Assembly: GCF_044324785.1 (NCBI RefSeq)
Contig: NZ_CP172127.1
Direction: 5' to 3' (one strand)
Origin: Escherichia coli
GTDB lineage: Bacteria; Pseudomonadota; Gammaproteobacteria; Enterobacterales; Enterobacteriaceae
DNA: 64,000 nucleotides
The notes under the pieces were generated by a model. That model was not told the DNA's origin and did no database searches. It worked only from the letters and a program-made list of their open reading frames with translations. Numbering within the stretch: the first letter of the stretch is position 1; every line of letters begins with the position of its first letter. Both the position numbers and the translations under genes were made by a program. Below, piece after piece: positions 51,714 through 56,767 of the stretch.

Positions 51714-52675
51714 TGCGTAGCGCGCAGGTATACCGCTGGCAGATCCCCATGGACGCGGGGGTGGTTCTGCGCGACAGGCGGTTAAAAACCCGCGACGGGC
51801 TGTATGTTTGCCTGCGTGAGGGCGAGCGCGAAGGGTGGGGGGAGATCTCCCCACTACCGGGCTTCAGCCAGGAAACCTGGGAAGAGGCACAAAGCGTGCT
51901 GCTTGCCTGGGTAAATAACTGGCTGGCAGGTGATAGCGAGCTACCGCAAATGCCTTCCGTCGCCTTTGGCGTAAGCTGTGCATTGGCGGAGCTGGCAGGC
52001 ACGCTCCCGCAGGCAGCCAACTACCGTGCTGCGCCGCTGTGTAATGGCGATCCTGACGATCTGATCCTCAAACTTGCCGATATGCCTGGCGAGAAAGTGG
52101 CGAAGGTCAAAGTGGGATTGTACGAAGCCGTGCGCGACGGCATGGTGGTCAATCTGTTGCTGGAGGCAATTCCGGATCTGCATTTGCGTCTTGACGCAAA
52201 TCGCGCCTGGACACAGCTGAAAGGCCAGCAGTTTGCCAAATACGTTAACCCGGATTATCGCGACCGCATCGCGTTTCTCGAAGAGCCGTGCAAAACCCGC
52301 GATGATTCCCGTGCGTTTGCCCGTGAAACCGGCATTGCCATTGCCTGGGATGAAAGCCTGCGCGAGCCGGATTTTGCCTTTGTGGCTGAAGAGGGCGTGC
52401 GCGCGGTAGTTATCAAACCTACGCTCACGGGCAGCCTGGAGAAAGTACGTGAGCAGGTGCAGGCGGCGCACGCGTTGGGGCTGACGGCGGTGATCAGTTC
52501 TTCTATTGAGTCGAGCTTAGGCTTAACGCAACTGGCGCGGATTGCCGCCTGGTTAACACCAGAGACTATTCCAGGGCTGGACACGCTGGATCTGATGCAG
52601 GCGCAGCAGGTTCGTCGCTGGCCGGGGAGCCCGCTGCCGTTAGTGGAAGTTGATGCACTGGAGCGGCTGTTATGA
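51713..52675 (+). CDS. menC: o-succinylbenzoate synthase (enolase superfamily)
   Basis: 320 aa starting [32 protein letters not shown]. Confidence 0.94.
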
Positions 52676-54027
52676 TCTTCTCTGACTGGCCGTGGCGTCA
52701 CTGGCGGCAAGTGCGGGGAGAAGCCATCGCCTTACGTCTTAATGACGAGCAACTCAACTGGCGCGAGCTTTGTGCTCGCGTCGATGAATTAGCCTCCGGC
52801 TTTGCGGTGCAGGGTGTGGTTGCGGGCAGCGGCGTAATGTTGCGGGCGTGGAATTCGCCGCAAACGCTGCTGGCCTGGCTGGCGTTACTGCAATGCGGGG
52901 CGCGGGTGCTGCCCGTGAATCCACAGCTGCCGCAACCGTTACTTGAGGAATTGCTCCCCAATCTTACGCTGCAATTTGCGCTGGTGCCGGATGGGGAAAA
53001 CACGTTTCCGGCATTAACTTCGCTGCACATTCAGCTGGTTGAAGGCGCACATGCCGCTGCGTGGCAGCCGACGCGTCTGTGCTCAATGACGTTAACCTCT
53101 GGCTCCACTGGCTTGCCGAAAGCCGCTGTTCATACTTACCAGGCCCATCTTGCCAGCGCTGAAGGGGTGTTATCGCTAATTCCGTTTAGCGATCACGATG
53201 ACTGGTTGCTCTCTTTGCCGCTGTTTCACGTCTCCGGTCAGGGAATTCTGTGGCGCTGGTTATACGCTGGCGCGCGGATGACGGTACGTGATAAACAGCC
53301 ATTGGAGCAAATGCTGGCAGGCTGTACTCACGCTTCACTGGTGCCAACACAACTCTGGCGTTTGCTGGTTAACCGCAGTTCCGTTTCCCTGAAAGCGGTG
53401 TTACTTGGTGGTGCGGCAATTCCGGTCGAGTTGACGGAACAGGCGCGCGAGCAGGGGATTCGTTGCTTTTGCGGCTATGGTCTGACCGAGTTTGCCTCCA
53501 CAGTGTGTGCGAAAGAAGCCGACGGTCTGGCAGACGTCGGTTCGCCGCTGCCGGGTCGGGAAGTGAAAATCGTAAACGACGAAGTGTGGCTGCGGGCTGC
53601 CAGCATGGCAGAAGGTTACTGGCGTAACGGGCAACTGGTTCCACTGGTTAATGACGAAGGCTGGTACGCCACGCGCGATCGCGGTGAGATGCATAATGGC
53701 AAGCTGACCATTGTCGGACGTTTAGACAATCTGTTCTTCAGTGGTGGCGAAGGCATTCAGCCAGAAGAAGTCGAGCGCGTTATTGCTGCACATCCTGCGG
53801 TTTTGCAGGTGTTTATCGTTCCCGTTGCTGACAAGGAGTTTGGTCATCGACCGGTAGCGGTGGTGGAGTATGACCAGCAAACCGTTGATCTTGGCGAATG
53901 GGTGAAAGATAAGCTGGCCCGTTTTCAACAACCGGTGCGTTGGCTGACGCTTCCACCTGAACTGAAAAACGGTGGTATTAAAATTTCACGTCAGGCGCTA
54001 AAAGAGTGGGTGCAACGCCAGCAATAA
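52672..54027 (+). CDS. menE: o-succinylbenzoate-CoA ligase (ANL adenylating enzyme)
   Basis: 451 aa; AMP-binding motif [10 protein letters not shown]; 4-nt overlap with menC. Confidence 0.94.
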
Positions 54028-54136
54028 TTAACCATCCGTTTCACTTCTCATTTCTGCCATTCCATTGCCGTTGATAAAGAGTTTATCTGTTAATCTGTAA
54101 ATTGATGTGAAAACTCTTAGCAAACAGGATAATGCA

Positions 54137-54403
54137 ATGGAATGGCTGGTCAAAAAATCGTGCTGCGATAAACAAGATAACAGACATGTACTTATGCTCT
54201 GCGATGCTGGCGGCGCGATAAAAATGATCGCCGAAGTGAAGAGTGACTTCGCCGTGAAAGTGGGCGATTTACTCTCCCCTTTGCAGAATGCGCTTTACTG
54301 TATTAATCGTGAAAAGCTGCACACGGTGAAAGTCCTCTCGGCAAGCAGTTACAGCCCCGATGAGTGGGAACGGCAGTGTAAAGCGGCAGGGAACACTCAG
54401 TAA
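54137..54403 (+). CDS. pmrD: signal transduction protein PmrD
   Basis: 88 aa from ATG at 54137 ([30 protein letters not shown]); AGGA Shine-Dalgarno at 54126-54129. Confidence 0.9.
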
Positions 54404-54783
54404 CGTTGTTTTGTCGTGGGCAGGAAAATCAACATCAACCCGCTCATAATACAAGCAACTCCCAGTAGTGCCTTCAGCGAAAAAGTTCCTTCCCAGCCGG
54501 GAAGTATCATTGATGCAATCCATACCAGCACATAGCTCATACTGAGCAAGGCATAGGCTTTGCTTAACGCAAGTTTATGTAGCGTTTTATACCAACAAAA
54601 AACGGAAAGCAGATAACCCAGCAGCCCGAGTAACAGTATCCGGGCATCCAGGCCAAAAGCTAACAGCGCCGCGATAAAATCCCATAAGTGCGTCATCGGC
54701 GGTAGATGACTCGCCGCATAACCCAGGCTTAATTGCGCAGCTGAGGCAATAATGACGCTGAATAATCCCCACATCAGGCCCAT
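54397..54783 (-). CDS. arnF: undecaprenyl phosphate-aminoarabinose flippase subunit ArnF
   Basis: 128 aa ([14 protein letters not shown]...TTKQRY), small multidrug-resistance-like membrane protein; the 222-aa track ORF is an upstream read-through. Confidence 0.9.
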
Positions 54784-55118
54784 TACACCGTACTCCCGAG
54801 GATCACAATGCCGCCAATAATGAACGCCACCCCACACCAGTGACGCAGTGATACCGGCTCGTGCCACAGTTTTACTGCAGCCAGCGTCACCCAGACAAAA
54901 TTCAGACTTAACATCGGGTAGGCAATGCCTACCGGTACGTTCTGCAAGACCAGCAGCCAGAGCACCATGGCAAGGCCAAGACAAGCCAGCGCCAGTCCCA
55001 GCCACAGCACGATATGTTTGCGCCGTTTGTTTATCGCCACAAAGCAGGTTGCTTGTTTCTGACACAACTGCCCGGCAACGCTAAGCAAGCTGGCAAAGAC
55101 TAATGTTAGCCAGATCAT
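54783..55118 (-). CDS. arnE: undecaprenyl phosphate-aminoarabinose flippase subunit ArnE
   Basis: 111 aa starting [21 protein letters not shown]; 1-nt stop/start overlap with arnF. Confidence 0.92.
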
Positions 55119-56767
55119 TTGGGCCGATACTGAATCAGCACCAGACGCTCCTGACGATCGATGGCATCTGCGGGCGGAATGGCGAGACTGTTGATATCTT
55201 CATCGCGGTCAACCGAAAGCACGAGTGTAATAATCCCCTCCTGACGATGTTGATTAAGCCAGTTTGCGAACTCATCACCGCTGACAAATCTCCCTTTCGC
55301 ATCCGGATAATTAAGGCCGTATTTCAACTCACCTGTCTGACGATACATGATGATGTCATCGCGTTGCAGGCTCCATGCCAGACCTGCGGCAACGCCCACG
55401 CTGTCAGTAAGAATATAGCGGCTTGGCTGCAGTGATTCTTGTGTCATCTCGACAAAAAATTGCGGATGTTTTCCTTCCAGGACTCTGTCAGGAATTGAAA
55501 ATCCTACCAGCAACGTCAGCCCCAGCGGGCAAAGCGCGGCAAAAGACCAGGTCTTTTCGACGTTTGTTAAGGTGTACCAGCCGAAAAATGCCCATAGCGA
55601 AAAAATCGACCAGGCACAGAAGACTTTATAGCTCTCGAAGGTTTGCCACACCGGCGTGTTCATTGGTCCCCAGGGGGAGACCACAAACGTAGCAATAATG
55701 CCAGTGACGCCAAAAGCGATGTTAATCCAGCCATTAATCCGCAACGCCAGAGGATTATTTTTTGCTGCCAGCAAAGCGTAATGCGCCATCAGCATTGCCA
55801 GAGGTGCAAAGCAGGAAAGAATATAGGTGGGCAATTTGCCTTTGGCGACGGAGAAAAACAGCAGCGGCATTACCGCCCAGCTCAATAAATAGACGGTTGC
55901 GGAATGCTTGCGGTTTTTCCAGCCTGTGTACAGTGCTCCGGGGAGTAATCCCAGCCACGGCAGGCTACCGGCAATGATGACCGGCAAGTAGTACCAGAAC
56001 GGAGCTCTATGCTGAGCATCATCCATTGCAAAGCGTTGAATATGCTCAACCCAGAAAAAATAGTGCCAGAAGTCAGGCTCCCGCTGCGCTATCGCCAGTC
56101 CCCAGGGGAGAACCGTCAGTACGCAACTGATAACCGCCAGCCAGCCGTAAATAAAGAGATCTTTCCAGCGTTTTTGCGTCGCCACCCATGGAAGCACGCT
56201 TAATACCGGCACGGCAAGGGCGAGAAAACCTTTGGTCATCACCCCCATGCCGCAGGTGATTCCCAGCAGTAAAAATCCGGCGCTTTTGCCTTTCCACGTC
56301 TGTGCCTGCATTGCCAGCCAGAAGCTGCACATTCCCGCCACCAGCCAGAATGCAATAAACGGATCGAGCACGGCATAAGTGCCGATGGCATAGACAATAA
56401 ACAATGAGAGATAAATTACTGTGGCGAGTAGAGCCAGACGTTTATCGCGCCATAAGCGCAGAGTAAACCAGGTCACCAGCGCGGCAGTTAACAGGGTCGC
56501 AAAGATAACGCCTGCCCGCACACCAAAGTTATTCGCGCCAAATAGCCATTGCCCAATGCTGTTAATCCAGTATCCGGCAATGGGTTTTTCGAAATAACGT
56601 AGCCCTAACAGATGGGGCACAATCCAGTCGCCGGATGCCAGCATTTCTCGACTGATTTCCGCATAACGCGTTTCATCGGGTTGCCATAGCAGACGTGTGC
56701 TGATCGGTAACAGGTAATAGCAGGCAATAAACGCGAAGAGGCCGATAAGGTAACGTACCGATTTCAT
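55115..56767 (-). CDS. arnT: undecaprenyl phosphate-alpha-L-Ara4N transferase (lipid A modification)
   Basis: 550 aa polytopic glycosyltransferase starting [42 protein letters not shown]. Confidence 0.95.

Follow-up and report, generated by a model that had tools for sequence, protein, structure and literature searches.

Adjacent genes overlap in 663 pairs of the Escherichia coli reference genome, and 75 of these pairs are convergent, an arrangement ascribed to the movement of stop codons (PMC4161906). In such short convergent overlaps, two real genes on opposite strands have a few 3'-terminal bases in common, both stop codons included. Convergent excludons are neighboring genes with overlapping 3' transcription, defined by each gene excluding the expression of the other, whether by interference or by way of RNase III, and an RNA-seq survey with ExcludonFinder lists 165 of them in strain MG1655 (NAR 2025; PMC12288877). 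The convergent mscL-arfA pair of E. coli, also present in that excludome list (PMC12288877), has overlapping 3' regions that are reported to permit antisense RNA crosstalk (PMC10070815). Bidirectional intrinsic terminators are found where both convergent genes need to be ended in a very small space. Within the PmrA circuit, PmrR is a membrane peptide activated by PmrA, and a feedback role has been described for it in Salmonella; to our knowledge no such role has been described for the arnF-pmrD junction, the subject of this article. The pmrR-basS (pmrB) genes are also a convergent overlapping pair, found in the same excludome table (PMC12288877).

The arnF-pmrD pair belongs to this same circuit, PhoPQ-PmrD-PmrAB, which governs lipid A modification and resistance to polymyxin and colistin. 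It lies in the window, meaning the whole 64,000-nt stretch of E. coli DNA analyzed here. Set beside the systems above, arnF-pmrD is a typical member of the short convergent overlaps, with no difference from them. It shares its circuit and its convergent overlap with pmrR-basS, although the genes are different. The mscL-arfA crosstalk is reported to be experimentally supported and involves 3' UTRs, whereas at arnF-pmrD it is the coding regions that abut, and any crosstalk there is hypothetical. Unlike the sites of bidirectional intrinsic terminators, the junction has neither intergenic space nor a convincing hairpin followed by a U tract. The pair is itself in the MG1655 list of convergent excludons, but the mutual exclusion that defines these remains putative for it. 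We consider it probable that this is an ordinary short tail overlap of two real genes, which arose through stop-codon drift and which, having no intergenic terminator, leads to mutual read-through.

Geometry of the overlap

The 267-nt pmrD gene (54137-54403, plus strand; 88 aa) has a 3' end reading ACT CAG TAA, with its stop TAA at 54401-54403. On the minus strand, arnF (54397-54783; 128 aa), the last gene of arnBCADTEF, ends in CGT TAC TGA; its stop reads tca on the plus strand, at 54397-54399. The two 3' ends have the 7 nt TCAGTAA in common (54397-54403), as given by the sequence, the list of open reading frames and RefSeq. The earlier note had described precisely this convergent overlap, with the pmrD stop lying within arnF, and its coordinates are exact. 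Upstream of pmrD and in the same direction is menE (52672-54027, plus strand), which encodes o-succinylbenzoate-CoA ligase, while arnE (54783-55118) and arnT (55115-56767; open reading frame and RefSeq) are on the minus strand with arnF. The arnE stop and the arnF start have 1 nt in common (54783), and arnT and arnE have 4 nt (55115-55118); these two overlaps are of the usual translational-coupling type within an operon.

Both of the overlapping frames are real genes and match curated NCBIfam equivalog models from end to end, PmrD with 173 bits (NF011994, cut-off 96) and ArnF with 138.8 bits (NF002816, cut-off 99). Their neighbors are equally clear, with 210.9 bits for ArnE (NF011625, cut-off 92) and 758.5 bits for MenE (NF006539, cut-off 494), and the synteny menE-pmrD-arnFET is conserved. 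The 88-residue E. coli PmrD is present in full in PDB entries 2JSO, a solved structure, and 4HN7. RefSeq annotates the identical 7-nt overlap in all five genomes opened, which are N3, K-12 C600 and three divergent E. coli strains picked from the low-identity end of the genome match list. A 901-nt query across the site finds a match in 5419 of 5426 complete E. coli genomes; strain N3 is 100% identical, and only 10 of the 5419 are at least 99% identical to the window over the 901 nt.

The overlap is real, already annotated and already known. Since it is one of 75 convergent coding overlaps in E. coli, the question of whether it occurs more than by chance hardly applies. As it stands it is of little consequence, being annotated in every RefSeq genome checked and catalogued as an excludon. 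It does matter for engineering, where a tag on the pmrD 3' end, or its deletion, also changes the end of arnF, and vice versa.

The junction across Enterobacteriaceae

Loci from other taxa were gathered with a PmrD profile scan of one genome per species and by exact-protein look-ups, and the stop-to-stop geometry was then measured. The look-ups were added to the scan, which gave only 10 loci because its peptide patterns were narrow. E. coli, E. albertii (L006) and the Escherichia lineage L017 all have the 7-nt overlap, in the forms TCAGTAA, TCAGTAG or TCAGTGA. Salmonella enterica (L022) and its subspecies diarizonae (L012) have a 6-nt overlap, TCATGA. In Citrobacter there is a gap: 2 nt in C. 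freundii and C. youngae, 3 nt in C. farmeri and most C. amalonaticus, and 9 nt at one C. amalonaticus locus (L007). Conservation in other Enterobacteriaceae, a point raised in the earlier note, is partial, with 7 nt in the Escherichia loci examined and 6 nt in Salmonella, but gaps of 2-9 nt in Citrobacter. An overlap of exactly 7 nt characterizes the genus Escherichia, and what Escherichia, Salmonella and Citrobacter have in common is a junction too tight for any intergenic terminator. Further away the arrangement disappears. Intestinirhabdus alba (L015) retains menE-pmrD, but the arn operon is not adjacent, and Klebsiella-like and more distant PmrD homologues (L018-L021) are in unrelated genomic contexts.

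All eight Escherichia loci in the comparison have the 7-nt geometry, even L017, whose PmrD is only 61% identical and where the tails have wholly diverged. Conservation is poor in PmrD beyond W77 and in the ~8 C-terminal residues of ArnF; both differ widely between taxa, which fits a drift of stop positions in tails under little constraint. In this window, loss of the pmrD stop would append ~42 codons. The stable geometry could reflect selection on the arrangement, but purifying selection on the individual stop codons would, as long as no indels occur, predict it just as well; such selection suffices to hold the Escherichia geometry, and a regulatory explanation is unnecessary.

Several loci have features of their own. 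Downstream of menE-pmrD, I. alba has unrelated genes. The Klebsiella-like pmrD (L018) adjoins an AMP nucleosidase gene, and the distant PmrD-family proteins P0124 and P0128 are encoded beside a Wzz gene and beside MFS or acetyltransferase genes. The type strain of S. enterica subsp. arizonae (L011, 2750-3130) and a second Salmonella genome, GCA_900456195.1 (L013, 2700-3460), whose PmrD cluster is named subsp. houtenae in the source, have an 11-nt deletion in arnF that shifts its frame. In the second genome, a 139-aa open reading frame from the shifted arnF enters pmrD by 59 nt, and arnE has a large internal deletion. The ArnEF flippase genes of these two Salmonella appear to be pseudogenes.

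How the transcripts may end

No mRNA is complete before its own stop codon, and full-length pmrD and arnF transcripts therefore have 7 nt or more of complementary sequence. A stable duplex needs more than 7 bp, and so does RNase III; pairing of the two transcripts over 7 bp is too little to be of consequence. A consensus scan finds no terminator-like site beyond background over several kb after the pmrD or the arnF stop, with 11 terminator-like matches over 8 kb compared to 10.2 +/- 3.3 in shuffled sequences. Rfam gives nothing at the gathering score at this locus, the sole mention being a sub-threshold pemK match (21.5 bits against the 34.8 needed, E = 0.48). The 3' ends of pmrD and arnF have no entries in the searchable parts of the supplements of a SMRT-Cappable-seq study (PMC6131387) or an E. 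coli Term-seq study (PMC7815308), nor do the genes in those of TERMITe (PMC12207403) or of a survey of transcriptional interference (PMC10349824); both are weakly expressed in standard media, which makes this absence uninformative.

With no terminator-like motif after either stop, both transcripts probably end within the opposite gene. The composition of the RNA past each stop points to putative Rho loading regions. The RNA 3' of the pmrD stop is C-rich and G-poor at 54424-54501 (plus strand; C/G 1.9), and that 3' of the arnF stop at 54079-54196 (minus strand; C/G 1.5-1.9), a stretch antisense to the start and 5' part of pmrD. Together with the end of translation at the stops, these stretches make Rho-dependent termination within the opposite gene the most likely route, and polymerase collision may contribute or act in its place.

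The sequence of events can be proposed as follows. The stop positions would have drifted in two C-terminal tails under weak constraint, which adjoin without a spacer, and the practical consequence of this abutment is that an intergenic terminator is missing. An RNA polymerase that goes past pmrD would then enter arnF in the antisense direction, while one that leaves the arn operon would cross the 267 nt of pmrD in antisense and might reach the pmrD promoter region, ~300-370 nt beyond the arnF stop. The two transcripts would be ended by Rho, acting on RNA that is no longer translated past the stops, by head-on collision of the polymerases, or by both. The resulting RNAs would overlap at their 3' ends over far more than 7 nt, and any regulatory effect would come from this read-through and not from the seven shared bases. 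Such an effect would be at most a modest layer on top of the known control of pmrD by PhoP and PmrA.

Possible read-through and the control of pmrD

The RNA-seq survey lists arnF-pmrD as an excludon seen in at least 50% of 58 MG1655 samples and names the pair in its text as two genes of one pathway (PMC12288877). In a literature search on pmrD and antisense, this paper was the sole relevant match. The earlier note had held that the two transcripts necessarily overlap at their 3' ends; this is logically required, and the overlap is indeed catalogued (PMC12288877), but the listing does not give the true 3' ends. ExcludonFinder calls an overlap as long as coverage remains higher than 50% of the mean for each gene (PMC12288877), so that for coding sequences that overlap and are both expressed, a listing is near-automatic. 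In the same survey, validation of double-stranded RNA with p19 failed for convergent pairs (PMC12288877).

The pmrD promoter lies in the menE-pmrD intergenic region (54028-54136, plus strand), which has a PhoP-box-like site at 54069-54085 (CGTTGATAAAGAGTTTA, with three mismatches), a consensus match only. A pattern scan of this E. coli region finds no PmrA-box-like site within three mismatches. Expression of pmrD in E. coli depends on PhoP (PMC2565834; PMC3140997). The earlier note had placed both transcripts in the PmrA regulon, but pmrD is better described as a PhoP-activated gene whose product regulates PmrA. The intergenic region is also where six E. coli sequences differ most from one another, with pi = 0.106 against ~0.03 in arnF, and the menE stop region (within 54000-54136) occurs as two haplotypes, …CAGCAATAATT and …CAGGATTAAGA.

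Interference or antisense control at arnF-pmrD, which the earlier note saw as allowed by the overlap, is at present only a possibility. In one rival reading, the arrangement would have been selected as a regulatory device and would work as a convergent excludon. Once phosphorylated PmrA induces arnBCADTEF, read-through and antisense RNA would lower pmrD by collision, promoter occlusion or RNase III, and a negative feedback loop would be closed on the PmrD connector; conversely, PhoP-driven transcription of pmrD would dampen the operon at its arnF end. Such a device would make sense of several features. The two genes act in one pathway and are listed together, and so is pmrR-basS, a second pair of the regulon. 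The terminator-less abutment is conserved in three genera, and pmrD with its promoter lies within ~370 nt of the arnF stop. Furthermore, since the promoter region of E. coli pmrD lacks a PmrA-box-like site, PmrA could influence pmrD there only by another route, which read-through could provide. Against this, the excludon call is the near-automatic one discussed above, and the repression of pmrD by PmrA in Salmonella is ascribed to a PmrA box that its promoter contains there (PMC2565834; PMC3140997), while Klebsiella has neither the box nor the repression (PMC2565834). The feedback loop has been reported to be absent in E. coli (PMC3140997). Finally, pmrD is found away from arn in Klebsiella-like genomes and next to menE without arn in Intestinirhabdus, which argues that the pathway does not need the arrangement. 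A selected device of this kind is unlikely. The more specific proposal, in which PmrA-induced arn read-through across pmrD and its promoter would act as negative feedback on PmrD in all three genera and would be the sole PmrA-dependent brake in E. coli, seems to us decidedly unlikely. Repression of pmrD by arn read-through, if it occurs, would give the circuit a small additional layer of feedback.

A palindrome within arnF

The one candidate for a terminator near the junction is a palindrome within arnF, CTTCCCAGCCGGGAAG (54489-54504), found by the terminator scan and by folding in the codons for LPGWEG, 86 nt inside the gene. If it acted as an intrinsic terminator in both directions, pmrD transcripts would end ~100 nt past their stop and arn transcripts would be attenuated within arnF. 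A terminator of this kind would be expected beyond both stops, as a GC-rich hairpin with an A tract upstream and a T tract downstream. In Escherichia it forms a GC-rich stem of 6 bp with a 4-nt loop and a stability of ~-9 kcal/mol on either strand, and on the arn-sense strand it is terminator-like, with GAACTTTTTC coming next: the A run on one flank reads as TTTTT on this strand. It is also identical in all of the Escherichia sequences compared, and the 40-nt window around it is the least divergent of the region.

These properties are offset by others. In the pmrD direction the palindrome is followed by UAUCAUUGAU, or by UACCAUUGAA in K-12, which makes a poor U tract, and on the arn-sense strand the cut would fall ~90 nt ahead of the arnF stop. 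The pairing register is shifted in Citrobacter (-4.5 to -8.3 kcal/mol), and in Salmonella the stem is nearly gone (-1.8 to -4.2 kcal/mol), on which grounds the palindrome was rejected as a conserved terminator. The conserved peptide LPGW(E/Q)G by itself favors palindromes of the CCNGG type, and terminator-like matches are, as seen above, no commoner in the region than in shuffled sequence. The missing entries in the searchable parts of PMC7815308 and PMC12207403 point the same way, with the weak expression of both genes in standard media kept in mind. A role for this palindrome as a bidirectional terminator is very unlikely.

pmrD alleles and cloned fragments

That the overlap is an artefact of annotation or sequencing can be dismissed as next to impossible: frameshifted and truncated pmrD alleles mean that individual assemblies can differ, but nothing was found in support of this reading, which is refuted by the equivalog matches, the five independent RefSeq genomes, the complete PmrD of PDB 2JSO and the stop codons, which set the 3' ends unambiguously and so leave no room for a start-site error.

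In a functional cloning study, colistin-resistant clones carried the pmrD locus with its flanks (PMC8004244, Table 3). The BL21 fragments contained arnF-pmrD-menE-menC and arnT-arnE-arnF-pmrD, while the pmrD open reading frame alone under a strong promoter gave no resistance, and the authors suspected another element in the fragments (PMC8004244).

The alleles themselves vary within the species. Some E. coli have frameshifted pmrD alleles of 103 aa (proteins P0014, P0017, P0011 and P0023), in which a new C-terminus comes from the frame that ends with TAA at 54447-54449 (54402-54449 in the window); with these, the overlap with arnF would be 53 nt. Truncated alleles of ~55 aa also occur, in clusters of 38-44 members. 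With both kinds of allele present, pmrD looks dispensable or decaying in part of E. coli.
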